Shown here: positions 1 through 21,954 of the stretch, piece by piece
How positions within the stretch are numbered: the stretch's first letter is position 1
How the letters are laid out: each line of letters begins with the position of its first letter
Virus record (IMG/VR): IMGVR_UViG_2802429224_000009
Direction: 5' to 3' (one strand)
Source of the DNA: a virus
Taxonomy: Duplodnaviria > Heunggongvirae > Uroviricota > Caudoviricetes
Length of the DNA stretch: 28,217 bases
Notes under the pieces: model-generated
What the model was told of the DNA's origin: nothing
Seen by the model: only the letters and a program-made list of their open reading frames with translations
The model's database searches: none
Position numbers and translations under genes: made by a program

Positions 1-1005
1 TTAATCCCCCGTGGACACTGCGTGGACACTCACGCCACCTTTCAGCGGATTAAGGGCCACCGCATCCTGCAGGTAATCCGGTGCAAAATGTGCATATGCC
101 ATTGTTTGCTGAATGGTTGCGTGGCCAAGAATCTTCTGAAGCGCAATAATGTTTCCTCCGTTCATCACAAAATGGCTGGCGAACGTATGCCGCAGCACAT
201 GTGCAGCCTGGCCTTTTGGTAAATCGGGCTTAACTCTTTTCAGCGCCAAGCAGAATTCCCGGTACTTCACCTCAAACAAGCCGCCTGTTTCTCTGGTTTT
301 GATCGCCTCACAAACTGCCTGCGAAATTGGCACTGTTCTCTTTCGGCCATTTTTGGTTTCAAGAAACGTCACTCGGTTATGAACTATCTGTTCACCACGG
401 AGCTTACAGGCTTCACTCCAGCGCGCTCCTGTGCTTAAACACAAAAGAGCAACACGCCAGTAATCGCCCTCCAATGTATCGAGCAATAACGCAACTTCCT
501 TCTGTGACAGGAACGCCATTTCTCGTGGAGATACATAAAGAATAGAAATTCCCCTTACCGGATGTTCTGCATCCCAAAGACCTATTTTTTTCAGCACGGT
601 AAACATTCCGGATAACCGATTCATGTACCTGTTAGCAGATGACGGTTTCAATCCATCAGCTATCTTTTGAGAACGCCACGCGATAATTTTCAGCTTATCA
701 AGATCCACAGCCTGCATATCAGCGCCAAGCTCATTGATTATGTTGCGCAGTTGTTTTCGGTCTTCTTCCGCCTTACGCCTGTGTTGACCGTGATACATCC
801 ACCACAACTCAAGCAAATCATTTAGCGTTCGGCGATCACGGTAGCCCTGTATATATTCCCGCTTTTCAGCGTTCGCCATGATGTAGCGTTCAGTGGCCAC
901 CGCTACCGATTTTTTGTCAAATACCTTACGCACGCGCTTTCCCTTGCGTCCGTTCGGCCTGATGTCCAGCAAATAACGACCATCTTCGAGCTTCTTAATT
1001 GACAT
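1..1005 (-). CDS. int: Phage tyrosine integrase (P2 Int-like site-specific recombinase)
   Basis: Track ORF 1..1020(-); likely start is the ATG at 1005 (MSIKKLEDGRY...) preceded by GGAGGG, TAA stop at 1-3. C-terminal region carries the tyrosine-recombinase signature (ARWSE...HVLRHTFASHF...LGH...Y). Sits downstream of the repressor on the same strand, as in P2. Confidence 0.9.
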   Translation of the reverse strand: MSIKKLEDGRYLLDIRPNGRKGKRVRKVFDKKSVAVATERYIMANAEKREYIQGYRDRRTLNDLLELWWMYHGQHRRKAEEDRKQLRNIINELGADMQAVDLDKLKIIAWRSQKIADGLKPSSANRYMNRLSGMFTVLKKIGLWDAEHPVRGISILYVSPREMAFLSQKEVALLLDTLEGDYWRVALLCLSTGARWSEACKLRGEQIVHNRVTFLETKNGRKRTVPISQAVCEAIKTRETGGLFEVKYREFCLALKRVKPDLPKGQAAHVLRHTFASHFVMNGGNIIALQKILGHATIQQTMAYAHFAPDYLQDAVALNPLKGGVSVHAVSTGD

Positions 1006-1101
1006 TGCGAAGCCCTCCAATGAACCGCTCTACAATTTCTCCAGCCTCTTTCCAGCAATAATCAGACCAGACAAAGAGCAGGTCTAACCAGTTTTCTGGC
1101 C

Positions 1102-1422
1102 TTAGCGGGGTGATTTTTGGTTTGTTTCGGTTGAAACCTGATCGCCCTCCGAATCGAAGAAGCCATCAAGAGAGAGAGGCGGAGCAATCTGCCCCGTCGC
1201 AGCATTAGTTTGATTAAACATCACCCAATCCGAATACTTCCGAAAACGAGGATGATTCAAAATCAGGAGTAGCGTTTCTCCAGGTATCATTCTTCCCAAT
1301 ATTTCATAATTTTTGAGATTGTTTTGAGATACCCCTGTCACCTCTTCCATCTCTCTACGTGACAATCCCTCTGCCTCTCGAATCAGGCGAAGTTTTTCTC
1401 CAAGGCTTGATTTATGGATCAT
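1102..1422 (-). CDS. C: Immunity repressor, P2 C-like (HTH)
   Basis: Track ORF 1102..1440(-) with a GTG at 1440; the ATG at 1422 (MIHKSSLGEKLRLI...) fits the P2 C N-terminus spacing better. HTH segment LSRREMEEVTGVSQNNLKNYE; C-terminal KYSDWVMFNQ..TGQIAPPL resembles P2 C (KYTLWFMTNQIAPESGQIAPAL) from memory. Divergent from cox. Confidence 0.8.
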   Translation of the reverse strand: MIHKSSLGEKLRLIREAEGLSRREMEEVTGVSQNNLKNYEILGRMIPGETLLLILNHPRFRKYSDWVMFNQTNAATGQIAPPLSLDGFFDSEGDQVSTETNQKSPR

Positions 1423-1537
1423 ATGTGATCTAAACTCCACGATATTGGGTTACATGTAATACAAAACATTCAAATAGCCAAAATAAGCCTATATAAGCCA
1501 TTTTGGGCCATTTGGACGAATTAAGGAGATTACCACA
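1423..1537. promoter_or_regulatory. Lysogeny/lysis switch region between divergent C and cox (candidate Pe/Pc promoters and operators)
   Basis: Seen directly: perfect 10-bp palindrome TTACATGTAA (1450-1459); 10-bp-phased direct repeats ATAGCC (1474-1479), ATAAGCC (1483-1489) and ATAAGCC (1493-1499), the last two overlapping a -10-like TATATAAG; -35-like TTCAAA at 1468-1473; AAGGAG RBS at 1523-1528. Direct-repeat operators are the known P2 C binding mode. Confidence 0.55.
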
Positions 1538-1825
1538 ATGAGCGAATCAGAGCTTGAGGGGTTCATTCAGGTAGCACCATATCCACTTGAAGCGGTGCCA
1601 TATCAACTATTTGCCAAGATGATTGGTCGCAAAGAATCAACCGTCAGAACCATGATTGACGCTGCAAAGTTACCAACGATTGACTTTGTGAAACCAGGTT
1701 CAGTGAAGACGCGAGCATCAGAAAACTGGGTATATCTGCCAGCATTTAACGCAGGTATGCGCAAAGCGTTTTTTGATCAGCCGAAAGAACGCCGCGATGC
1801 ATGGTTGTTGTGGCTGGGGCTTTAA
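1538..1825 (+). CDS. cox: Cox-like excisionase / early transcriptional regulator
   Basis: 95 aa, strong RBS. Translation ...PYQLFAKMIGRKESTVRTMIDAAKLPTIDFVKPG...NWVYLPAFNAG...PKERRDAWLLWLGL closely parallels P2 Cox as recalled (...PYQEFAKLIGKSTGAVRRMIDKGKLPVID...YWVYLPAWNNG...PKEIRDGWLMWLGL). Confidence 0.85.
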   Translation: MSESELEGFIQVAPYPLEAVPYQLFAKMIGRKESTVRTMIDAAKLPTIDFVKPGSVKTRASENWVYLPAFNAGMRKAFFDQPKERRDAWLLWLGL

Positions 1826-1831
1826 TCATAA

Positions 1832-2038
1832 ATGACCAGCAATATCACCAGCGCCATTTTGGACCTTGTATTCCTAGAAGTGGGTGTAATAGCGATTTAT
1901 CTGCTTAGCAAGCTAACAGGACAAAAAGAACGCTTTATTGTTCTCAACGTTCATTACCTCGCCGCTTATGCCAGAGGTCTTTTTCCGATCACCATTGGTG
2001 CGCTGCTCATGGCGTTTGTTATTTGGCTCATCGGGTAG
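1832..2038 (+). CDS. Small hypothetical membrane protein (two predicted TM helices)
   Basis: 68-aa ORF immediately after cox; two hydrophobic stretches (ILDLVFLEVGVIAIYLL, LFPITIGALLMAFVIWLIG). Weak RBS. Confidence 0.35.
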   Translation: MTSNITSAILDLVFLEVGVIAIYLLSKLTGQKERFIVLNVHYLAAYARGLFPITIGALLMAFVIWLIG

Positions 2039-2049
2039 AGGCACGAAAA

Positions 2050-2508
2050 ATGAATAAGCAACAGCGAAATGGCAAGCCCCATAACACGGGATTTCGTCGC
2101 AATTACTTTGAAAATGGGTGTTATGCCGGGGAAGTAAATCGGCACGGAGTTTTTGACATGAAGCAACAGCGCAATTCTTCACAGCAACGCTTCCGCAACG
2201 GGGCGGAACGCCACGCTAACCGTTTCGCTACCAGTGCATCGCGTAGCAACTCTCGCTACAGCCTGAGCGAAACACACGCAACACCGGATGGCCACGCTGT
2301 AAAACAAATCGGCGAGCATGCCTGGCTGATTGAGAAAGCTGGAATCGTGGTCCACAAATGCCCACGCAATCCGTTTACCGGAAACCGCATTTTTGCATTG
2401 AGCTGCGGCGACAATCACTTCGGGCAGGATTTCACATTATACGAAGCGCTTCGCACGGTTGATCGTCTGCTTCGCGGGCAAAGTTTTATTAAACAGGCTG
2501 ATTTATAA
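2050..2508 (+). CDS. Hypothetical early protein (152 aa)
   Basis: Track ORF 2023..2508; internal ATG at 2050 (MNKQQRNGKP...) with GTAGAGG 8 nt upstream. N-terminal half rich in N/Q/R, C-terminal half more globular. No family recognised. Confidence 0.45.
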   Translation: MNKQQRNGKPHNTGFRRNYFENGCYAGEVNRHGVFDMKQQRNSSQQRFRNGAERHANRFATSASRSNSRYSLSETHATPDGHAVKQIGEHAWLIEKAGIVVHKCPRNPFTGNRIFALSCGDNHFGQDFTLYEALRTVDRLLRGQSFIKQADL

Positions 2509-2531
2509 CAGGTGCTTTATGACCAAAGAGC

Positions 2532-2798
2532 ATGCACAAGGTGTATTTATCCGTTTTATTGATTTTCGCGGTGAACTGTTATTACGCGCATCAGCCATTG
2601 ACGGAGTTGTTCCATCCGAAAAAAAACGCAGCTACTTACGTTTATCTGAACGGTACGCGCCTGACTGTGGAGCTTCCGTACCAGACCGTACGAGAAATCA
2701 TTAGCGAAGCTGAAAAGGCACGTCAGGTTAATGGCGATGAACCCTATATCGAAATTATTTGTATGGATTCAGAAGCTGAAATTCAGAAAGCAGATTAA
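2532..2798 (+). CDS. Hypothetical protein (frame uncertain)
   Basis: 88-aa ORF ending 12 nt before the RBS/ATG of the next gene (operon-like packing). An overlapping alternative frame (ATG 2519..2704, 61 aa) cannot be excluded; start unverified. Confidence 0.3.
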   Translation: MHKVYLSVLLIFAVNCYYAHQPLTELFHPKKNAATYVYLNGTRLTVELPYQTVREIISEAEKARQVNGDEPYIEIICMDSEAEIQKAD

Positions 2799-2809
2799 AG
2801 GGCATTGCG

Positions 2810-3052
2810 ATGGGCAAAGAATATAAAACTCTCATTAATAAAGCACTTGAACGATTTTATTTTCGCTTAAGTGCATCAGGCGCTCATGCTGAACGTGCAG
2901 CCCGTGACTCATTGACCAGGGCAATCCGGAGTTTGTATGACGTCGCTTTTTACGCTGATGATCTGGATGCACTTAACGAACTTTCCGAGCTGATCTGTGC
3001 CGCAGAATGCGGGGAACATATTGAACCGTATAAGCTGGGGAATATCGCATGA
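2810..3052 (+). CDS. Hypothetical protein (80 aa)
   Basis: ATG at 2810; stop TGA overlaps the ATG of the next small ORF (ATGA at 3049-3052), suggesting translational coupling. Confidence 0.45.
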   Translation: MGKEYKTLINKALERFYFRLSASGAHAERAARDSLTRAIRSLYDVAFYADDLDALNELSELICAAECGEHIEPYKLGNIA

Positions 3053-3162
3053 GTATATTTATCTCATGGCTTGTTCTGATTATTTCGGTGGCCTGCGCCA
3101 TTGGGATTATGCGAATTATTCATTCAGTAAAAAAGATTGAACGCTTTTTCACTGACGAATAA
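3049..3162 (+). CDS. Small single-pass membrane peptide (37 aa)
   Basis: Not in the ORF track (below length cut-off). My translation: MSIFISWLVLIISVACAIGIMRIIHSVKKIERFFTDE; hydrophobic core then basic tail; start overlaps the upstream stop. Confidence 0.35.
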   Translation: MSIFISWLVLIISVACAIGIMRIIHSVKKIERFFTDE

Positions 3163-3254
3163 CAGCTTAAACAAAACACCAGATTAAATAAGAAAACGTG
3201 AAAACAATCCGCACTCGCGGAGGTATTCGCACACACAAATAACGAGGATACAAA

Positions 3255-3668
3255 ATGAACGCTAAAGATACAGTCACCATCACCAAACTGAAAAAAATAT
3301 CAGAAATGGAAGATGCATTAGCCAGGCAGGCACTGAGAGAAGGACTTATTCCCTTTTATGTTCGTTCAATGGCTATAGCAGAAGTCACCGCAAGTGCTGC
3401 TGGACTTATTGAAAGCCTGAACAACGAAATCAGCACTCTCAAAGCTCAATTAGCCGGCACCAACACTTCTTCCCCCAGCATTGGGAAACGGGTCTTTATC
3501 ATCAACAACCCACAACAGGAATACATCATCCTGGCAGACCTGCAGGGGAGCTACATGATTGCTGCGGTTCCGGCAAATGAGAGCGAACCGCTGAGTGATG
3601 TACACATCATCAGACGCGACCGGATTGCGTTCATCGACACAGCAACCTCTTCCCCATTTAACGCATAA
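3255..3668 (+). CDS. Hypothetical protein (137 aa)
   Basis: ATG at 3255 with AGGA-containing RBS (aacgaggatacaaaATG); follows a ~90-bp non-coding gap, so possibly the first gene of a sub-operon. N-terminal region looks helical/coiled-coil. Confidence 0.5.
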   Translation: MNAKDTVTITKLKKISEMEDALARQALREGLIPFYVRSMAIAEVTASAAGLIESLNNEISTLKAQLAGTNTSSPSIGKRVFIINNPQQEYIILADLQGSYMIAAVPANESEPLSDVHIIRRDRIAFIDTATSSPFNA

Positions 3669-3696
3669 CCCCATGAAAAACCAAAGGAGCACAGCG

Positions 3697-3897
3697 ATGA
3701 TCAAATCATTATTAACCGCACATTTCACATCGCGCGGCGTTGAATACGACGTGGAAGACAGCCTGATCGATCACGACAGAACAGCTCCTTCCCGCAGCGA
3801 GCCGGGTGTTCATCACATCTGGCTTAAGAACGGGGAGCATTACGTGGCTACTAACGTGATGTATGTGCAGGTCCTGCGCAAAAAAGCAGGTAACTGA
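3697..3897 (+). CDS. Hypothetical protein (66 aa)
   Basis: Track ORF 3595..3897; the ATG at 3697 (MIKSLLTAHF...) has AAAGGAG 6 nt upstream and lies after the upstream stop. Confidence 0.4.
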   Translation: MIKSLLTAHFTSRGVEYDVEDSLIDHDRTAPSRSEPGVHHIWLKNGEHYVATNVMYVQVLRKKAGN

Positions 3898-3922
3898 TGA
3901 CTCAGGTACAGGAGCCACGCAG

Positions 3923-4168
3923 ATGACCATTCTGGACTACATCGCCGCCAATCCGGGTTGTAGCGGTGGAGAAATCGCCGCAGCACTGAATACCTCAACC
4001 ACAGCCATTAATGCGGAGTTACGCCGACTCTGGCGCAGCGGTTCAGTCATAAGAAAAGAGCGCAAAACAGGCGGTCGCTTTTCTTACCAGATAAACCCGA
4101 TGCCGTTCGGGTGCGGCAATCCACTTACCAACATGTTTAACCAGCTACTGAAGGAAGCCAGAGCATGA
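3923..4168 (+). CDS. Winged-helix DNA-binding protein (MarR/PadR-like fold, 81 aa)
   Basis: ATG at 3923 with AGGAG RBS; MTILDYIAANPGCSGGEIAAALNTSTTAINAELRRLWRSGSVIRKERKTGGRFSYQI is a typical wHTH layout (recognition helix, then basic wing). Stop overlaps next ATG (ATGA at 4165-4168). Confidence 0.55.
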   Translation: MTILDYIAANPGCSGGEIAAALNTSTTAINAELRRLWRSGSVIRKERKTGGRFSYQINPMPFGCGNPLTNMFNQLLKEARA

Positions 4169-4461
4169 GCGCCATCAACCACCAGGAACTACGCGAACTG
4201 GCAACTGACTTGCAACGAATGGCAACGCATCAAAAATTACTGGCGTTTCGCGCAATGCTCTCGCCGTCTGCTGTGCTGGCCCTACTGGATGAACTGGAGC
4301 ACGCCGGAACCACAGCTCCCGCCATTCGCCTGACGCTCCGCCATGAGATCGAGGATTTTTGCGCAACGCTGGAGTCATTGGGCGAACCCCAGACACCGGA
4401 AGACATGCAGCGCGAGTTACTGCAGCGCATCAACAAGGTTTTTGATTTCTTTCTCAACTAA
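4165..4461 (+). CDS. Hypothetical helical protein (98 aa), translationally coupled to the wHTH gene
   Basis: ATG at 4165 overlapping the upstream stop; acidic, predicted helical; no family recognised. Confidence 0.5.
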   Translation: MSAINHQELRELATDLQRMATHQKLLAFRAMLSPSAVLALLDELEHAGTTAPAIRLTLRHEIEDFCATLESLGEPQTPEDMQRELLQRINKVFDFFLN

Positions 4462-4475
4462 GCGGGAACCACAAC

Positions 4476-4688
4476 ATGAACAAGAAGACATGGCTTCGCG
4501 CCTATGCATGGGCGCTGGTATGCGTCCTCGTTTCTCTCATTCTGTATGTGGGGCTACTCCCCAGAATGATTTCATCAGACAGCTCCTTCCTGGTATTGCT
4601 GGGCATTTTTGTCGCCTTGCTGTACCCGGCGGGCGTTGTCCGCTTTTTCAGTAACTACATCAAAGCAATTATGGAAACCAAACAATGA
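4476..4688 (+). CDS. Small inner-membrane protein (70 aa, two TM helices), partner of the SPFH lipoprotein
   Basis: Hydrophobic segments YAWALVCVLVSLILYVGLL and FLVLLGIFVALLYPAGVV; stop TGA overlaps the ATG of the SPFH gene (ATGA at 4685-4688). Confidence 0.5.
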   Translation: MNKKTWLRAYAWALVCVLVSLILYVGLLPRMISSDSSFLVLLGIFVALLYPAGVVRFFSNYIKAIMETKQ

Positions 4689-5509
4689 AAAAACTATTAC
4701 CACTCATCCCTCTCCTGATGACCACACTTCTGGTTGGCTGTGACCGCGTGGAGCCGGGCAATGTAGGCATCAAAGTCAACAAGCTGGGCGACGACAAAGG
4801 CGTCGGCGAAGTAGTTGGCGTTGGCCGCTACTGGACAGGCTGGAATACAGAGGTTTACATCTTCCCGACCTTCAAACAAATGAAGACTTACGATGAGCCG
4901 TTCAGCTTCCAGATGAGTGACGGCACAACCATCGGCTATCACATCGGCGTGGCTTACAAGGTTGATCCATCCAAAGTTACCACAGTGTTTCAGACCTACC
5001 GCAAAGGCGTGGATGACATTACTGACACTGACCTGCGCCAGAAGATCGCCGATGCACTCAACCGACTGGCCAGCAAAATGACCACCGATAAGTTTATCGA
5101 CGGTGGCAAGTCTGAACTGCTGGATTCAGCACTTAAAGACATTCAGTCAGAAATGACACCTATCGGCATTCAGGTAATGAGCCTCTCTTATGTCGGTAAA
5201 CCGGAATATCCGCCAACCGTTATCGACAGCATTAACGCCAAAGTCACGGCAAACCAGAAAACCCTGCAACGCGAGCAGGAAGTCAAGCAACGCGAAGCAG
5301 AAGCCAACATGCTGCGCGCAGAAGCTGCCGGACAGGCCGATGCCATTCGCACAAAAGCCCAGGCTGAAGCCGACGCCATTCGTTTACGCGGTGAAGCTCT
5401 GCGCCAGAATCCCGGCGTTATGGAGCTGGAAGCGATTAACAAATGGAACGGCACGCTACCGCAATACATGACCAGTAATACCGCTGTTCCGTTTGTTCCG
5501 GTGAAGTAA
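4685..5509 (+). CDS. SPFH/band-7 (prohibitin/stomatin-like) domain lipoprotein
   Basis: 274 aa. N-terminal lipoprotein signal peptide with lipobox LLVGC (MKKLLPLIPLLMTTLLVGC); central SPFH-like core; C-terminal Ala/Glu/Arg-rich coiled coil (REAEANMLRAEAAGQADAIRTKAQAEADAIRLRGEA) typical of the family. Confidence 0.8.
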   Translation: MKKLLPLIPLLMTTLLVGCDRVEPGNVGIKVNKLGDDKGVGEVVGVGRYWTGWNTEVYIFPTFKQMKTYDEPFSFQMSDGTTIGYHIGVAYKVDPSKVTTVFQTYRKGVDDITDTDLRQKIADALNRLASKMTTDKFIDGGKSELLDSALKDIQSEMTPIGIQVMSLSYVGKPEYPPTVIDSINAKVTANQKTLQREQEVKQREAEANMLRAEAAGQADAIRTKAQAEADAIRLRGEALRQNPGVMELEAINKWNGTLPQYMTSNTAVPFVPVK

Positions 5510-5515
5510 TTCAAC

Positions 5516-5539
5516 CCGGCCAGTGAAACCGCTGGCCGG
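5516..5539 (+). terminator. Stem-loop after the SPFH gene (terminator-like, no U-tract)
   Basis: Perfect 8-bp inverted repeat CCGGCCAG (5516-5523) / CTGGCCGG (5532-5539) with an 8-nt loop, 7 nt after the stop; followed by A-rich rather than T-rich sequence. Confidence 0.3.
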
Positions 5540-5576
5540 AAATATAACGAATAAACAAAAAGCCAGAGGACAGAAC

Positions 5577-5723
5577 ATGCACAAAGCCTTTGAACGATGG
5601 ATGCGCCAGCGTTACGGCAATCGCTATGACCTGACAAGGGATGTTGATGGCTACTACTGCCGCGAAATTGTGAAACGAATGTTTGAAGTGTGGTGCCACG
5701 CTCGCGGCCTGTACGCCGTGTAA
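5577..5723 (+). CDS. Small hypothetical protein (48 aa)
   Basis: ATG at 5577 (MHKAFERWMRQRYGNRYDLT...) with GAGGA about 8 nt upstream; short, so coding status uncertain. Confidence 0.3.
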   Translation: MHKAFERWMRQRYGNRYDLTRDVDGYYCREIVKRMFEVWCHARGLYAV

Positions 5724-5862
5724 TCCGTGTCACTGCCAGAAGGTTAACCCATGTATACACAAAAAAACCGCTTGCCATGCCGTAATCAGTCAGGTTACAT
5801 TTCCGCTGCACCTCATAAAACGGGTGCCGGGATTGCAACCCCCGCTGACAACTACAGCGCAC

Positions 5863-5883
5863 AACCGCGCCAGCGGTTTTTTT
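5863..5883 (+). terminator. Candidate Rho-independent terminator
   Basis: AACCGC (5863-5868) / GCGGTT (5873-5878) stem with GCCA loop, followed by a T-run through 5883. Confidence 0.4.
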
Positions 5884-5923
5884 GTGCGTACCGTATCGCC
5901 ACGTCTTTTTCGCACACGAATTA

Positions 5924-6001
5924 TGGTGGGGCGTATGGGGCCGACTTCGGTCGGGCCGGTTTCTGTAGTTGCCGGTGGTTGCAACCCCATACGCCTCGCC
6001 A
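5924..6001. repeat. Long-range inverted repeat (about 17 bp arms) enclosing a UUCG-tetraloop hairpin; candidate structured RNA or DNA cruciform
   Basis: 5924-5940 pairs with 5985-6001 (core 11 bp GGCGTATGGGG / CCCCATACGCC perfect, extended with G-U pairs); interior holds CCGAC-TTCG-GTCGG (5941-5954). Confidence 0.45.
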
Positions 6002-6061
6002 CCCAGAATTGCAACCTCTGGATGGTGAGTTTTCAAAACTTGCAACTACAGAGGCCACATC

Positions 6062-6364: not shown

Positions 6365-6754
6365 ATGATTGACCGTCACGACTTCGTAAAATGGGTGCGC
6401 ACACAGGACACCCGTCTGGCCCCAAAACTTCAGGCAATGTTTGATTTTTATCTCCGTGCCCGCGCCAGCCGGGCACGCACCACAAAACCGGAGAACGCAG
6501 ACACCCTTTATTTCACCGTGGACGACTGTTACCGCGTAGCCTTCACGCCACAAGGTCTGGCCCTGTACACCCTGACACCACACGGCGACTCCCTGCTGGC
6601 GTATTACAACTCCCCGGCCTCCGTATTTGCGGCAATGCTGGCGCATCGTACCGCTGGCGGGTGTGCCTCGCTGAGTGAATACACCACTGAATTTAACCGC
6701 CTTTCCGTCATCTTCTCGCAGGAGTGGCAGCGCGTGACGGGATACCAGCCATGA
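6365..6754 (+). CDS. Hypothetical protein (129 aa) translationally coupled to gene A
   Basis: Stop TGA at 6752-6754 overlaps the ATG of the replication gene at 6751. Confidence 0.5.
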   Translation: MIDRHDFVKWVRTQDTRLAPKLQAMFDFYLRARASRARTTKPENADTLYFTVDDCYRVAFTPQGLALYTLTPHGDSLLAYYNSPASVFAAMLAHRTAGGCASLSEYTTEFNRLSVIFSQEWQRVTGYQP

Positions 6755-9591
6755 GTGAGTTTGCATGGAGCTGGAATGAACCGCAGCCAGCTATTGATCC
6801 GGACGACTTCGCGAACTTCAGCCGGTTGCCAAAAACCGGACTGCAACGCGCCATTCGTTACTACTATGAGGCGGACAAAAAGGCTCAGGAAGAACAGGAT
6901 GCGAAGGAAGAAGCCTTTTTCGCACAATCCGCCATGGGTAAAAAACTCATGGCATCCCTTGAGGAAGCCGGGCAACGCGAAAAACTGATAAAAAACATCA
7001 TCAGTAAGCGCCAGGAAATAAAGCAAGACCCGGTGGCCTGCGCCTTTGCCGAACTGAAGGCACTTCCCGTTTATCTGCGAGACCCCCTGAGCCGCCGCCT
7101 CTCTTTTTTACGTAAGAAGCAGGAATCTGACCGCCAGAAAGGAAAAAACGCCAGGCTGGCAGAACGCTATGCACAAGGAACCCTGCTCAAAATATTCAAA
7201 CGTCTGAAACGCACTGACGGACGCTGGCTGACACCGTGTTATTGCTCCCTTGCCGGACGCGAACGCCTGGACGATTTGCTTTACCTGCCGCAGCTCAACA
7301 AACACCAGATACAGACGCTGGCCACCATGACGGCGGCGATGTTCAGCAGCACTTTTGAAACACTCTGCGATAACTTTGGCGCGACTGATGGCGAGCTGAC
7401 CATGAAAATTGCGCTGAAGGCGTATCAGATGCTGGCCCGCATGGCGTTACATCTGCACACCATGCCGCCGCATTACGAAGCACTGAGAACGGACAAAGAC
7501 CGGAAGAACGCACCGAATACGGAGCTGCTGCCGGGTGCCATCCTTCGCCTGACCTGTGCGGAATGGTGGAAACACAAACTGTGGCTTTTACGTTGCGAGT
7601 GGCGGGAAGAACAACTCCGTGCCGCCTGTCTGGTTTCCAGAAAAACATCACCCTATCTGAGCCAGGACGCGTTAAGCGAGTTTCGCGCACAGCGCGAGAA
7701 AACACGCGATTTTCTGAAAAGTTTCATGCTGGAAAATGAAGACGGGTTCACGATTGATCTCGAGACAGTGTATTACGCGGGAGTAAGTAACCCGGTTCAC
7801 CGTAAGGCAGAAATGATGGCCACCATGAAGGGGCTGGAACTTCTGGCCGAAGCCCGTGGTGACAAAGCGGTGTTTCTGACTGTCACCTGCCCGTCAAAAT
7901 ACCACGCAACAACGGAGAACGGTCATCCGAACCCCAAATGGAACGGGGCCACCATGCGCGACTCCAGCGATTACCTGGTTAACACGTTTTTTGCGGCGGT
8001 CCGCAAAAAACTGAACCGCGACGGCCTGCGCTGGTATGGCATCCGCACGGTGGAGCCTCACCATGACGGCACCGTGCACTGGCATATGATGGTCTTTGCT
8101 CATCCGGAAGAAATCGACAGCATCGTGGCCATCACCCGCGATATTGCCATTCAGGAAGATCGTCACGAACTGGGCGATGATATTACTCCGCGCTTTAAGG
8201 CGGAGTATGTCGACGGCTCAAAAGGCACACCAACCAGCTATATCGCGACCTACATCGGAAAAAACCTGGACAGCCGCGCCGTAGATGGCATCGACCCGAA
8301 AACGGGCAAGCCACGCGTTGACCACGAAACCGGAAAATCAATGGCCGAGAGCGTGGAGCGCGCCATTGGCTGGGCGCGTCTTCACCGGGTCCGCCAGTTC
8401 CAGTTCTTTGGCATCCCCTCCCGTCAGGTATGGCGTGAACTCCGCCGCCTTGCCAGCCAGATGGCACGCAACCCGGAAGGCCCGCAACGGCTGAAGGATG
8501 ATGCAATGGATGCGGTACTCGCTGCCGCTGATGCCGGGTGTTTTGCCTCCTACATTGAAAAACAGGGCGGCGTACTTGTTCCACGTAAAGACTACCTGAT
8601 TCGCACCGCCTACGACCTCGCAGATGAGCTGAACGATTACGGCGAACAGAGCGTACAGATTTACGGGATCTGGTCACCACTCATCGGGGAATCCTCCCGT
8701 GTGTGCACGCATCCGGATAACTGGAAGCTGGTAAGACGCAAACCGGAAGCGGAAGACAGCGCCCGCGAAAATGGTTTTGACCTTCAGGGCGGCCCTGCCG
8801 CCCCTTGGACTCGTGGCAATAACTGTCCCCGTGTACAGGAAACGAACAACAACGGGACAGAACAGCCGGAAGAACGGCCAGCACTGTGGCCGCAGCTCCC
8901 TGACGGCGTTGAAGTGAATGAATGGATGCGCTCACTGAAACGGCACGAACGCCGGGCGCTGATGCGTTCGCTGCGTGACAAACAGGCCAAAAACAGCAGT
9001 GCTGAAATGCAGAACTGGACACAGAGCCGCAAACAGCCACAGCCTTTGCCTGATAACCACGAGTTACTCGCTAAAGAATGGCGGGAGTCTGCTGAATCTC
9101 TCGGCCTGCATATCGGTGAACAGCAGATGCAGCACCTGTTACGGGGCGGCAGTCTGTACGTTGACGGCAGCATCATTGCACCGCAGGGATTTGAAATTGT
9201 ACGCAAACCGGATACCCGCCCGGACAGCCGAATCACGCAGCTCTGGCAACGCCTGAGCCGTAACCACGGCGTAAGCAGCACGGAGATCCGCCATAACCCG
9301 GTCGCCAGCTATCTGGAACAACTAGGGGCATCAGACCCTGAAGCCGCCGCACACCTGGCATCCACACTTCAGCAGGACCAGAACACCATGAAAACCCCCG
9401 TTACCGTGCTTTCTGACATGCTGCGCGCCATCCGTGACGCAGAGCATGCACAAAGAATCAGTGAAACCACTGAACGCGCCCGCCGCAAAGCAGACCTGCT
9501 GCGGGGTGGCCTGACCAGCGGAAACAAAAAACAGACAGAAACGGGATTCACAAATCCCGTAAATGAGCAAAAAACGCGCCGCGATATATGA
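6751..9591 (+). CDS. A: Rolling-circle replication initiation endonuclease, P2 gpA family
   Basis: Track ORF 6724..9591; probable start is the ATG at 6751 (MSEFAWSWNEPQ...). Carries the HUH-type motif (HDGTVHWHMMVF) and paired catalytic tyrosines (TSYIATYIGKN) characteristic of gpA-family initiators. At 946 aa it is longer than P2 gpA as I recall it. Confidence 0.9.
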   Translation: MSEFAWSWNEPQPAIDPDDFANFSRLPKTGLQRAIRYYYEADKKAQEEQDAKEEAFFAQSAMGKKLMASLEEAGQREKLIKNIISKRQEIKQDPVACAFAELKALPVYLRDPLSRRLSFLRKKQESDRQKGKNARLAERYAQGTLLKIFKRLKRTDGRWLTPCYCSLAGRERLDDLLYLPQLNKHQIQTLATMTAAMFSSTFETLCDNFGATDGELTMKIALKAYQMLARMALHLHTMPPHYEALRTDKDRKNAPNTELLPGAILRLTCAEWWKHKLWLLRCEWREEQLRAACLVSRKTSPYLSQDALSEFRAQREKTRDFLKSFMLENEDGFTIDLETVYYAGVSNPVHRKAEMMATMKGLELLAEARGDKAVFLTVTCPSKYHATTENGHPNPKWNGATMRDSSDYLVNTFFAAVRKKLNRDGLRWYGIRTVEPHHDGTVHWHMMVFAHPEEIDSIVAITRDIAIQEDRHELGDDITPRFKAEYVDGSKGTPTSYIATYIGKNLDSRAVDGIDPKTGKPRVDHETGKSMAESVERAIGWARLHRVRQFQFFGIPSRQVWRELRRLASQMARNPEGPQRLKDDAMDAVLAAADAGCFASYIEKQGGVLVPRKDYLIRTAYDLADELNDYGEQSVQIYGIWSPLIGESSRVCTHPDNWKLVRRKPEAEDSARENGFDLQGGPAAPWTRGNNCPRVQETNNNGTEQPEERPALWPQLPDGVEVNEWMRSLKRHERRALMRSLRDKQAKNSSAEMQNWTQSRKQPQPLPDNHELLAKEWRESAESLGLHIGEQQMQHLLRGGSLYVDGSIIAPQGFEIVRKPDTRPDSRITQLWQRLSRNHGVSSTEIRHNPVASYLEQLGASDPEAAAHLASTLQQDQNTMKTPVTVLSDMLRAIRDAEHAQRISETTERARRKADLLRGGLTSGNKKQTETGFTNPVNEQKTRRDI

Positions 9592-9667: not shown

Positions 9668-10627
9668 ATGAAAATTTGTATCGACGACGGCTCCACCAAC
9701 ATCAAGCTGGCATGGACTGAGAACGGCGAACGCCGCAACGCCATCAGCCCGAACAGCTTCAAGTCGGAATGGTCTGCGCCGTTCGGTGGCACGCAGCCCG
9801 CGAACTACATGCTTGATGGCGTGCGCTATGGTTTTGATCCGGTCAGCGATCGCTTTGTCCAGACGACCGACACGCAATACCAGTACAGCGATGTGAATGT
9901 CATTGCCATTCATCATGCGCTGGTCAAATCAGGCATCACGCCACAGGAGGTGGATGTGGTTGTCACCCTGCCACTGAGCGAGTATTTCGACACAAACGCA
10001 CAGCCGGACATGACCAACATCAACCGCAAAAAAGCGAACGTTATGCGCCCGGTGGAGTACCAGAACGGCGAGGCATTCACTATCCGTAACGTGCGGGTTA
10101 TGCCTGAATCCATTCCGGCTGGCTTTAAAGCACTGGCTGACATGAGTCCGTTTGAATCCCTGCTGATTGTGGATTTGGGCGGAACCACGCTGGATGTGGC
10201 AAAGGTTCAGGGGCAACTGGCAGGTATCAGCCAGGTGTTTTGCGATCCACACGTAGGCGTTTCCCTGATGGCCGATGCCGTACTGTCGGTGATGGCCACC
10301 AACGGTATGCGCACCAGTCACCACATCGCCAATACCATTATCGAACATCGCCACGATGAAGCCTGGCTGCGCCAGCACATCCACAATGACGCGCATTACG
10401 CCAGCCTGATGGCGGTTATTCGTGAAAAGGAAGAAACACTGAAACAACGCGTGATCCGCGCGCTGGCGGGTTTTTCGGGTTACGGGCGGGTGATGGTTGT
10501 CGGTGGAGGGGCGGAGATTGTGGCACCCGCTATCCGCGAAGCCTGCGGAGTTAATGCGACTTTCATCGCGGACGGGGTGCCACAGTTTGCTCTGGTTAAT
10601 GGGCTGTACGCAATGGACAAGGAGTAA
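9668..10627 (+). CDS. parM: Actin-like segregation ATPase, ParM/StbA family (type II partition)
   Basis: 319 aa, AAGGAA RBS. N-terminus MKICIDDGSTNIKLAW closely matches R1 ParM as recalled (MLVFIDDGSTNIKLQW); phosphate-2 motif IVDLGGTTLDV; C-terminal VMVVGGGAEI...LVNGLYA also ParM-like. Confidence 0.9.
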   Translation: MKICIDDGSTNIKLAWTENGERRNAISPNSFKSEWSAPFGGTQPANYMLDGVRYGFDPVSDRFVQTTDTQYQYSDVNVIAIHHALVKSGITPQEVDVVVTLPLSEYFDTNAQPDMTNINRKKANVMRPVEYQNGEAFTIRNVRVMPESIPAGFKALADMSPFESLLIVDLGGTTLDVAKVQGQLAGISQVFCDPHVGVSLMADAVLSVMATNGMRTSHHIANTIIEHRHDEAWLRQHIHNDAHYASLMAVIREKEETLKQRVIRALAGFSGYGRVMVVGGGAEIVAPAIREACGVNATFIADGVPQFALVNGLYAMDKE

Positions 10628-21206: not shown

Positions 21207-21503
21207 ATGCAGGAGCATGAGCGCACCATTATCACTCTGGGTATTCTGGGCGGAATCGCTGCCGCAAGTCGGGTGCTGGCTGGCGCAGAGCCGATTACGT
21301 TGCGGTTGTTTGTGGGCCGAACCCTGCTGGGGAGCGCGCTGGGTGTTTCTGCCGCTGCCCTGCTGGTTCGCTACCCGAACCTTGACCCACTGGCCATTGC
21401 CGGCGCAGGCACCGCAATGGGCGTTGCCGGTTACCAGATTGTTGAAATCTTCCTGCGTCATATGCGCCGGAAGCTGGGCGAGAAAGAGAACAAAGAGGAG
21501 TAA
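21207..21503 (+). CDS. Holin-like small membrane protein (98 aa)
   Basis: Two to three hydrophobic helices (IITLGILGGIAAASRVLAG; LLGSALGVSAAALLV; AIAGAGTAMGVAGYQIV) followed by a highly charged C-terminal tail (RRKLGEKENKEE), a classic holin layout. Confidence 0.45.
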   Translation: MQEHERTIITLGILGGIAAASRVLAGAEPITLRLFVGRTLLGSALGVSAAALLVRYPNLDPLAIAGAGTAMGVAGYQIVEIFLRHMRRKLGEKENKEE

Positions 21504-21612: not shown

Positions 21613-21954
21613 ATGAAACTCTCCGATAAGCAACAACAATTTACCGTCATGATCGGAAAACTCATCCAGTTTGCCCATCAGCGCGGTTATGGCCTGACGT
21701 TCGGTGAGGCGTACCGCACGCCAGAACAGGCAAAACTCAACGCACAAAAGGGATCCGGCATTGCCAACAGCCTGCACTGCCAGCGGCTGGCCGTGGATTT
21801 TAATCTGTTTATTAACGGTGAATATCAGACCCGCACAGAGGCCTACCGTGAGCTGGGCGAGTACTGGGAATCCCTTGGTGGCGCATGGGGCGGTCGTTTT
21901 AAAAACCGACCGGATGGCAATCATTTCAGCCTTGAGCACGACGGCGTGCGCTGA
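21613..21954 (+). CDS. Peptidase M15-family cell-wall hydrolase (putative endolysin)
   Basis: 113 aa; zinc-ligand pattern of the M15/VanY-like fold (SLHCQRLAVDFNLF ... DGNHFSLEH); AAGGAG RBS. Confidence 0.6.
   Translation: MKLSDKQQQFTVMIGKLIQFAHQRGYGLTFGEAYRTPEQAKLNAQKGSGIANSLHCQRLAVDFNLFINGEYQTRTEAYRELGEYWESLGGAWGGRFKNRPDGNHFSLEHDGVR

Follow-up and report, generated by a model that had tools for sequence, protein, structure and literature searches.

The window analyzed here, a stretch of 28,217 nucleotides, is a P88-like (Xuanwuvirus, P2-like) prophage of E. coli. The window region is 86–95% identical at the DNA level to the Xuanwuvirus phages P88, P884B11, and Shae_phiSM, and of the 5426 complete E. 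coli genomes, 1404 carry prophages at the same level of identity to it. Its genes are ordered as int, the C repressor, cox, a run of short genes at 2050–3162, replication gene A, and then the P2-type capsid and terminase genes. This is the early-operon layout of the P2-like Peduoviridae, with the run at 2050–3162 between cox and gene A on the same strand, and with the divergent C and integrase genes adjoining. An earlier note on this DNA had described a run of short, closely packed early ORFs in what it took for a temperate phage, and both points are borne out: the ORFs follow one another tightly on a single strand, in the early operon just downstream of cox. Four conserved genes make it up (DUF4761, phrog_3800, DUF4754, and the gene of a 37-aa peptide), preceded in the window by cox and a gene for a 68-aa membrane protein. 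The features referred to below are as follows.

1–1020, minus strand: int
1102–1440, minus strand: HTH repressor (C), divergently oriented
1538–1825, plus strand: Phage_Cox
2050–2157, plus strand: 36-codon in-frame extension upstream of DUF4761, with which the whole ORF would encode 152 aa
2158–2508, plus strand: DUF4761 family gene, 116 aa if translation begins at the conserved Met
2519–2798, plus strand: phrog_3800 gene, frameshifted in the window, its N- and C-terminal halves being the ORFs 2519–2704 and 2532–2798
2619–2626, plus strand: A8 homopolymer run, the +1 frameshift site by alignment (A7 in intact alleles)
2810–3052, plus strand: DUF4754 family gene, 80 aa, predicted soluble helical hairpin
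3049–3052, plus strand: ATGA overlap, the peptide start lying across the DUF4754 stop
3049–3162, plus strand: gene of the 37-aa peptide, predicted to be a single-pass inner-membrane peptide
3055–3111, plus strand: codons of the predicted transmembrane helix (residues 3–21, hydropathy 2.68)
3208–3221, plus strand: conserved RNA hairpin, UCCGC-N4-GCGGA and then GG, 45 nt past the peptide stop
6724–9591, plus strand: Phage_GPA replication gene
21207–21503: holin-like multi-pass ORF, with three hydrophobic stretches by eye
21613–21954: M15 endolysin

The region 2050–3162 is an ordinary, previously catalogued accessory part of the P88-type early lytic operon. The same genes occur in the same order in P88 as gp04–gp07 (YP_009113047–YP_009113050), and RefSeq holds counterparts of the DUF4754 protein (WP_000514277) and of the 37-aa peptide (WP_000021654), the P88 and RefSeq peptides being 97–100% identical to that of the window. 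Two differences from P88 were found: the equivalent of gp05 is frameshifted in the window (A8 vs. A7), and the window has an extra 68-aa membrane-protein gene and the 36-codon extension before DUF4761. In some relatives, reverse-strand genes are inserted directly upstream of DUF4761, which is thus an insertion-prone region for extra genes. Another membrane module, consisting of an SPFH lipoprotein and a 70-aa membrane protein, is located in the same operon at 4476–5509. Extra matches in a contig scan came only from E. albertii and from one record titled Vagococcus sp. with an E. coli-type prophage.

The earlier note recognized no family among these ORFs. Three of the genes do match families, all of unknown function: DUF4761 (PF15958; E = 4e-69, 229.9 bits against a cut-off of 27, covering profile positions 1–105 of 105), DUF4754 (PF15946; E = 2.8e-54, 181.7 bits against a cut-off of 27, positions 1–80 of 80), and phrog_3800. 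The note also placed the start of the first gene at 2050. Some gene callers choose the same start (P0072, 152 aa, with 1217 member sequences), but position 2158 is the only Met of DUF4761 shared across about 40 different upstream contexts, and judged by this comparison 2158, not 2050, is the conserved start. The 36-codon extension is confined to the roughly 12 loci that have the 68-aa membrane-protein module, and its first codons repeat the DUF4761 start imperfectly (ATGAATAAGCAACAGCG vs. ATGAAGCAACAGCG).

The ORFs 2519–2704 and 2532–2798, treated in the note as competing genes, turned out by comparison with relatives to be one frameshifted phrog_3800 gene. The PHROG 3800 profile is split between them, with positions 1–37 matched in frame 1 and positions 34–95 in frame 2, whereas relatives have a single phrog_3800 ORF of 92 or 95 aa. 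With one A removed from the A8 run, the sequence encodes a 92-aa protein that matches the commonest allele of that length exactly. The window therefore has a phrog_3800 family member in a disrupted state, with no intact ORF of about 92–95 aa spanning the whole profile. The same A8 allele was observed at locus L028 and in E. coli strains JB2 and 631, where PGAP labels the gene “frameshifted.” A conserved programmed frameshift was considered and rejected: A8 is the minority allele, present on 1 IMG/VR contig against 39 with A7, and PGAP calls the gene a pseudogene. Because the A7 run has become A8, the copy in the window is inactive or leaky. As a minor alternative, the A7/A8 run of phrog_3800 and the A6 and T5 runs in the tail of the peptide gene could be slippage-prone switches that vary the accessory proteins.

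Overlap between the genes is confined to a single junction. Overlapping stop and start signals had been claimed for the whole run; the claim holds for the ATGA at 3049–3052, and the other junctions are gaps of 10–11 nt (2508 to 2519, 2798 to 2810, and, if the start at 2050 is counted, 2038 to 2050), each with its own Shine-Dalgarno-like motif. The proposed coupling of the peptide to its upstream gene is upheld, its signal being the ATGA overlap, which is unchanged in all 90 sequences examined and also at the divergent loci L090 and L094–L096, with a GGGGA or GGGAA motif 7 nt upstream. None of the 89 loci, and none of the phage matches, has the peptide ORF anywhere but beside DUF4754, and the cassette of the two genes is present in 1364 of 5426 complete E. 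coli genomes (about 25%). At the nucleotide level, the region of DUF4754 and the peptide is unusually alike between phages with differing flanks. The DUF4754 gene has a pN/pS of 0.08, and its protein is 80 aa long in every allele checked, including three divergent ones that were translated and are 26–40% or 81% identical to the protein of the window. AlphaFold2 predicts helices at residues 4–48 and 52–66 (pLDDT 88.8), and the predicted fold has no PDB match at E < 1. At locus L095, an E. coli-type DUF4754 (81% identical to that of the window) stands beside a peptide of 65% identity. The two genes can thus be swapped independently, which weakens the case for a tightly co-evolved complex.

The product of the ORF at 3049–3162 is MSIFISWLVLIISVACAIGIMRIIHSVKKIERFFTDE. 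By its conservation and substitution pattern, this 37-codon ORF is judged to be a real, conserved protein-coding gene. Among 89 related loci, 87 have the ORF intact, and pN/pS is 0.21 in its own frame compared with 1.2–1.6 in the other two forward frames. Against homologs at 54–65% identity pN/pS is 0.34–0.45, and in these homologs the gene order, the ATGA overlap, and the 80-aa upstream gene are all kept. The antisense-frame ratio over the region is also low (0.25), which mirrors the sharing of wobble positions, as expected; the frame-specific pattern was not put down to an antisense ORF, as none spans the region. When 1.84 billion representative proteins were searched exhaustively with HMMER, only 8 clusters came back, all of the peptide's own family and confined to prophages of Escherichia, Salmonella, and Shigella. 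The exact peptide sequence is found on at least 1000 contigs. Its equivalents are the WP_000021654-type proteins of RefSeq and gp07 of P88, catalogued previously only as hypothetical or as a prophage membrane protein (“membrane protein” in P88, “hypothetical protein” in RefSeq, “Prophage membrane protein” in UniRef), and the gene is uncalled in the records of Shae_phiSM and 520873. The peptide is truncated to 30 aa in the isolated phage Chuche and frameshifted in phage 503458, and 45-aa alleles with a frameshifted tail have been maintained and have since diverged. On these grounds the peptide is judged non-essential.

One could argue instead that the 37-codon ORF is untranslated and owes its conservation to an RNA or DNA element, given that the nucleotide similarity of DUF4754 and the peptide is unusual for phages with different flanks and that a conserved RNA hairpin lies directly downstream. 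This explanation is close to refuted and we give it hardly any weight. The substitutions are frame-specific; homologs with as little as 54% identity still have an uninterrupted ORF, in which the changes are conservative; the overlap of start and stop does not vary and comes with a Shine-Dalgarno-like motif; and the hairpin is outside the ORF.

The hairpin is itself conserved. Its pairing is kept in 98.9% of cells; one pair has changed on both sides, from CG to UA, in 4 sequences, and two one-sided changes yield G·U pairs, which are workable on the plus strand only. The fold z-score is −2.9 on the plus strand and −0.55 on the minus strand. A scan had suggested a minus-strand terminator, which we rejected because the G·U pairs form only on the plus strand and the minus-strand fold is no better than that of shuffled sequences. 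The hairpin is retained in divergent cassettes and ahead of no fewer than three distinct downstream genes, and the conserved module formed by DUF4754 and the peptide has its 3′ edge there.

The earlier description of the peptide as a 37-aa single-pass protein with a hydrophobic helix and a basic tail agrees with our measurements. The maximum of the 19-residue Kyte-Doolittle profile is 2.68, at residues 3–21, which ranks the peptide top of the 168 ORFs of 30–60 aa in the six frames of the window, only 3 of which reach 2.5. The tail is basic and amphipathic, with a net charge of +1 and a helical moment of 0.72 that is reached by 2.4% of shuffles. The family-invariant residues in the alignment columns (S6, W7, L10, I11, A17, R22, and I24) are in or beside the helix, where by helical-wheel arithmetic they span an arc of about 160 degrees. 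Following the positive-inside rule, the predicted topology is most likely N-out/C-in, with two N-terminal residues outside and the basic tail in the cytoplasm. The C-terminal tail is evolutionarily labile, and thus this amphipathic part may not be the functional part of the peptide.

By analogy with P2 biology, 2050–3162 would be transcribed from Pe once the C repressor is lifted; a simple consensus scan of 1440–1538 did not return the Pe promoter. Over 1000–6000 the consensus scan gave a sole promoter-like site, at 5772, and no such site near the peptide gene on either strand. The Rfam scan found only isrK and C4, at 5808–6006, and nothing over 2000–3300.

Searches with the 37-aa peptide gave no Pfam match at E ≤ 0.1, no PHROG match at E ≤ 0.01, no NCBIfam match, and no PDB relative by sequence. 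Profile searches of the PDB with DUF4761, DUF4754, and phrog_3800 gave chance-level matches only, the folds of the neighboring gene products offered no clue to function, and none of the genes in 1832–5509 has a credible match in PADLOC (best E = 0.012 at 11 bits). The peptide is not part of lysis: it is located 18 kb from the endolysin and the holin-like ORF, and it has no Pfam match to a holin, antiholin, or spanin. A literature search returned no paper naming DUF4754, DUF4761, the RefSeq accessions, or the peptide sequence; papers on P88 and Xuanwuvirus appear to treat host range or prophage surveys, and a search for fil and dhr of coliphage 186 returned unrelated papers only.

Several known groups of small proteins resemble the peptide in part. 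Lambda Kil, Rac KilR, and Fil and Dhr of coliphage 186 are small, non-essential products of genes that temperate coliphages transcribe early in the lytic cycle; their target is the host rather than phage replication. The peptide has no sequence similarity to any of them by Pfam match, and lambda Kil is not known to have a transmembrane helix. Type I toxins are short (TisB 29 aa, Ldr 35 aa, Hok about 50 aa), with a single hydrophobic helix and a charged end. The peptide is similar to Hok/Gef, Ldr, TisB, and Ibs in size and helix and shares with them the character of a small hydrophobic membrane peptide, but it matches none of these families. Type I toxins also form self-contained toxin-antisense loci, whereas the peptide gene is coupled to an upstream gene in a long operon, and neither the Rfam families nor the promoter scan provided a cognate antisense RNA or an independent silenced mRNA. 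AcrZ, MgtS, MgrB, CydX, and SidA of Caulobacter are small regulatory inner-membrane proteins of 29–49 aa that act through helix-helix contacts; each has one transmembrane helix, and the tail on the cytoplasmic side is short. In them, as in the peptide, it is mainly the helix that is conserved; they are chromosomal and have known partners, whereas the peptide is phage-borne and non-homologous to them.

Our best guess is that the peptide is a non-essential inner-membrane accessory factor produced together with DUF4754. Since the peptide ATG overlaps the DUF4754 stop codon, ribosomes that terminate on DUF4754 probably reinitiate at the peptide start, so that expression of the early operon would yield both proteins together. 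Insertion of the peptide into the inner membrane is most likely, and there the conserved face of its helix probably acts on a membrane partner. This partner could be a host membrane protein; alternatively, the peptide could tether or regulate DUF4754. Overall, we lean modestly toward the genes being accessory genes of a P88-like early operon, and toward the peptide being a non-essential, host-modulating inner-membrane factor with a membrane partner, which would modulate the host during early lytic growth.

The earlier note had tied the peptide to Kil, Fil, and toxin-like host-takeover factors, which would place it in an early division block or in inner-membrane depolarization. Judged by position only, a host-takeover role is a reasonable guess: the peptide is small, hydrophobic, and non-essential and is encoded in the early operon of a temperate phage; kil-type genes are often present in phage early operons; and small membrane peptides can block division (SidA of Caulobacter) or collapse the membrane potential (Hok, TisB). 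The searches gave nothing to tie it to these families: the peptide had no Pfam, PHROG, NCBIfam, or PADLOC match at E ≤ 0.1 and no PDB relative, so that it shows no relation to Kil, DicB, Hok/Gef, Ldr, TisB, or Ibs, nor membership in any other phage division-inhibitor family of Pfam or PHROG. Its gene has no type I layout: Rfam shows neither an antisense RNA nor an sRNA belonging to it, and it is coupled to the gene upstream. Moreover, the conserved residues share one helix face, as would suit contact with a specific partner better than nonspecific damage to the membrane. The exact peptide occurs in prophages on at least 1000 contigs, and about a quarter of E. coli genomes have the cassette; such a spread is compatible with tight repression but does not hint at toxicity. 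We consider such a factor rather unlikely.

It is somewhat less doubtful, if still tentative, that the peptide is a membrane anchor or regulator of the DUF4754 hairpin, with DUF4754 as the active component of a complex on the inner face. The invariant ATGA coupling, the strict linkage in 89 of 89 loci, and the constant 80 aa of DUF4754 are all in line with this, and the predicted two-helix hairpin could pack against the amphipathic tail helix. The recombinant at L095, which joins an E. coli-type DUF4754 to a divergent peptide, and the persistence of peptide alleles with wholly different frameshift-derived tails argue the other way. Small prophage membrane proteins also often serve lysogenic conversion or exclusion, and the cassette could be a module for superinfection exclusion or defense, expressed in the lysogen from an internal promoter. 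The SPFH membrane module of the same operon and the insertion-prone region, with its reverse-strand genes upstream of DUF4761, would fit this explanation. We nevertheless regard it as improbable: the cassette is same-strand and tightly packed behind cox, the only promoter-like site over 1000–6000 is at 5772, PADLOC gives no match, and in these phages the cassette belongs to the operon as a constant component rather than a variable insertion. Going beyond the favored accessory role, we also entertain, as a speculative proposal, that DUF4754 and the peptide, with their invariant ATGA coupling and conserved 3′ hairpin, form a hitherto undescribed two-part membrane effector by which P88-type phages disable a specific inner-membrane machine of the host early in the lytic cycle; the machine could be the division, envelope-stress, or membrane-bound defense apparatus.

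These results do not overturn current knowledge of P2-like phages, and their practical value is modest: a sub-threshold ORF is shown to be a real gene, the DUF4761 start is fixed at 2158, two competing frames become one frameshifted gene, and a conserved RNA hairpin is recorded at the edge of the module. Genes for tiny phage membrane proteins are usually missed by annotation. If the peptide and DUF4754 have a defined host target, they would be a new and very widespread case of tiny membrane proteins of temperate phages. If the two-part effector is true, it would represent a very common, unstudied phage-host interaction, since the cassette is present in about a quarter of sequenced E. coli.

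The ORFs of 2050-3162(+) are present as an earlier note had described them, with four details corrected here, and belong to a run of small genes framed by the following features.

1-1020 (-), tyrosine integrase
1102-1440 (-), HTH repressor
1538-1825 (+), Phage_Cox protein
between Phage_Cox and Phage_GPA (+), run of small genes on one strand
6724-9591, Phage_GPA replication gene, which ends the first 9.6 kb
21207-21503, holin-like multi-pass ORF with three hydrophobic stretches by eye
21613-21954, M15 peptidase of lysis

P2-type portal, terminase, scaffold and capsid genes, tail genes and an M15 endolysin lie 3' of Phage_GPA. Window 1000-4700 has 86-95% DNA identity to Xuanwuvirus phages P88, P884B11 and Citrobacter phage Shae_phiSM, and its DNA is matched by prophages in 1404 of 5426 complete E. 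coli genomes. In P2, early transcription starts at Pe and proceeds through cox as far as gene A. By analogy with P2, the region would belong to the accessory genes of the early lytic operon in a P88-type prophage; Pe was not detected in a simple promoter scan. The region is ordinary and already catalogued, and no pointer to an unusual mechanism was found.

Other genes of the window were also observed. Directly 3' of cox, a 68-aa ORF with two hydrophobic stretches (1832-2038, phrog_14475) is found in a subset of relatives only, always accompanied by a 36-codon extension before DUF4761. A second membrane module of the same early operon (4476-5509) comprises two genes with a 4-nt overlap: the first encodes a 70-aa hydrophobic protein (4476-4688), and the second, whose start lies in the overlap, encodes a lipoprotein of 274 aa that has an SPFH/Band 7 domain (Pfam E 1e-30) and weak HflK/HflC similarity, annotated “serine protease” in P88. 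Rfam places the isrK Hfq-binding sRNA (5808-5883, 60 bits) next to C4 antisense RNA (5919-6006, 81 bits), upstream of a gene annotated “derepression protein” in relatives; we take the pair to be the known P1/P7-type antirepressor control module, here inside a P2-like prophage. Just 3' of replication gene A is a full-length ParM/StbA actin-like segregation protein gene (9668-10627; StbA_N E 3e-82, ParM C-terminal domain E 1e-68), an unusual cargo for an integrating P2-like prophage.

A length of 37 codons alone is unremarkable, as the window holds 168 ORFs of 30-60 aa, and the coding evidence for the ORF at 3049-3162 therefore rests on comparison with relatives. By tblastn, the ORF was found in 89 of 89 related loci and is intact in 87, with conservative substitutions (e.g., V/I/A, R/Q, H/N). 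The annotated frame has a pN/pS of 0.21 across 31 distinct DNA sequences, compared with 1.56 and 1.23 for the two remaining forward frames; the adjoining DUF4754 gene has a pN/pS of 0.08. When 1.84 billion representative proteins were searched exhaustively with HMMER, eight clusters were recovered, of which P0066 and P0067 are 54-65% identical to the peptide and P0069 is 43% identical. The source loci of P0066 and P0067 are also P2-like prophages, in which DUF4761 is followed, in some cases after an intervening gene, by a DUF4754-type gene of 80 aa and then, across the same ATGA overlap, by the peptide gene, and against these homologues the peptide gene has a pN/pS of 0.34-0.45 at a pS of 0.53-0.75. 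The ATGA overlap and a GGGGA/GGGAA motif 7 nt upstream are invariant in 90 of 90 sequences. Short of direct peptide detection, we take this comparison to settle the coding status of the ORF, and the membrane peptide proposed in the earlier note is real, with the most hydrophobic helix among the small ORFs of the window.

The stop/start overlap is confined to the ATGA at 3049-3052. The other junctions, which had been read as overlapping too, are gaps of 10-11 nt (2508 to 2519, 2798 to 2810 and, if the 2050 start is counted, 2038 to 2050), each with a Shine-Dalgarno-like motif. Nor are the genes without recognized families: DUF4761 (PF15958, E 3.6e-69), phrog_3800 and DUF4754 (PF15946, E 2.8e-54) are catalogued families of unknown function. 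RefSeq annotation covers all these genes, the 37-aa ORF included. Annotation often misses the peptide gene, which is present yet unannotated in the records of Shae_phiSM and phage 520873, and frameshifted and also unannotated in that of phage 503458.

The ORFs 2519-2704 and 2532-2798, earlier treated as competing frames, are halves of one phrog_3800 gene, positions 1-37 of the profile matching the first frame and 34-95 the second, and relatives have a single ORF of 92 or 95 aa. The window has A8 at 2619-2626 where intact 92-aa alleles have A7, and deletion of one A recovers the commonest 92-aa protein. The A8 allele is also found in an IMG/VR contig (L028), E. coli JB2 and E. coli 631, whose backgrounds show 15-17 differences from the window over 761 positions, and PGAP labels the gene “frameshifted” in both E. 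coli strains. In exact context, IMG/VR holds A8 once and A7 39 times. Given this rarity and the intact A7 relatives, a conserved programmed frameshift was rejected, and the window either carries a minority allele in which the gene is disrupted or contains a sequencing error in the homopolymer.

For DUF4761, an upstream walk from the family match in 95 loci places the conserved start at 2158, since the only Met common to about 40 unrelated upstream contexts aligns there. The ATG at 2050, a candidate alternative start, opens the 36-codon in-frame extension, which is restricted to loci with the 68-aa membrane-protein gene and whose beginning imperfectly repeats the DUF4761 start.

Hydropathy averages 2.68 over residues 3-21 of the peptide, a value that no other of the 168 small ORFs reaches, and a single transmembrane helix is predicted. 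The remaining 16 residues (RIIHSVKKIERFFTDE) include five basic (four K/R and one His) and three acidic residues, and should be cytoplasmic by the positive-inside rule. On paper this tail forms a strongly amphipathic helix, with a moment of 0.72 that is equalled by 2.4% of shuffles. Family-invariant residues are M1, S6, W7, L10, I11, A17, R22 and I24, all but the initiator Met in or beside the membrane helix. By helical-wheel arithmetic these other seven residues fall within about 160 degrees of arc (roughly p = 0.05), which is only suggestive of a single conserved face. The tail end falls into two classes: IE..FTGE, in 37- and 41-aa forms, and unrelated tails of 45-aa forms, in which the A6 run (3129-3134) or the tail T5 run (about 3146-3150) has changed by one base, so that 12-17 other residues replace the last 4-9. 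Since these 45-aa alleles have gone on to diverge from one another, they are persistent natural variants and not sequencing errors. Because the invariant residues cluster at the helix and the tails vary, the constrained part is the helix with its basic border, and the tail end is labile. The full-length peptide is dispensable for a viable phage, because it is truncated to 30 aa in the isolated phage Chuche and frameshifted in phage 503458. The lysis genes lie 18 kb away.

DUF4754 and the peptide form a fixed two-gene cassette in the early operon, coupled through ATGA and under purifying selection. Its 3' edge is marked by a plus-strand RNA hairpin of sequence UCCGC-N4-GCGGA, which precedes an invariant GG (3208-3221, within 3198-3230; stem 3208-3212 with 3217-3221), 45 nt 3' of the peptide stop. 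The hairpin persists in divergent cassettes and also where the downstream gene differs, with at least three such genes represented. In one base pair both partners have changed (CG to UA), and two substitutions on one side only leave G.U pairs that can form on the plus strand alone. No U-tract follows, so it is not a canonical terminator; it may serve in RNA processing or stability, or as a binding site for a protein. Rfam returned no RNA family within 2000-3300.

The peptide has no match in Pfam, PHROG, NCBIfam, PADLOC or PDB, and its database names are “hypothetical protein,” “membrane protein” and “Prophage membrane protein” only, with its exact sequence on at least 1000 contigs. DUF4754 is confidently predicted as a two-helix hairpin (pLDDT 88.8) with no informative structural neighbor, and a literature search found no mention of these families, accessions or the peptide sequence. 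A DUF4754 98% identical to that of the window occurs on a 226-kb contig titled Vagococcus sp. WN89Y (NZ_JBQPOM010000071.1), which carries an E. coli-type prophage under a Gram-positive label; this record is probably contaminated or mislabelled.

With moderate confidence, we regard the peptide as a real and non-essential accessory factor that is located in the membrane, serves early lytic growth and is co-produced with DUF4754. On activation of the early operon, both proteins would be produced, the peptide would insert N-out/C-in, and its conserved helix face would act on a membrane partner. This partner would be an inner-membrane protein of the host or else DUF4754, held at the membrane by the peptide. 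Two overlapping versions fall within this general reading. That the peptide anchors DUF4754 is possible though doubtful: in a recombinant locus (L095) an E. coli-type DUF4754 is paired with a 65%-identical peptide, which, with the labile tail, argues against a tightly co-evolved complex. The Kil/Fil-type or toxin-like role proposed in the earlier note is unlikely; from general knowledge, lambda Kil and 186 Fil resemble the peptide in position and size only, and the one-sided conservation of the helix speaks against unspecific damage to the membrane. Type I toxins, as generally known, are alike in size and hydrophobicity only, and the peptide lacks their defining layout, a separate, antisense-controlled locus. 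We consider it quite improbable that the pair is an undescribed membrane-acting effector on a specific host target.

P88 gp07 and its RefSeq equivalents are the same gene as the peptide. The small regulatory membrane proteins AcrZ, MgtS and SidA, again from general knowledge, are alike in architecture and location of conservation, without homology. The peptide is best filed with uncharacterized small phage-encoded membrane proteins of early operons. The DUF4754-peptide pair is very widespread, and the useful outcomes for this region are the corrections to its first reading and the conserved plus-strand hairpin at 3208-3221.
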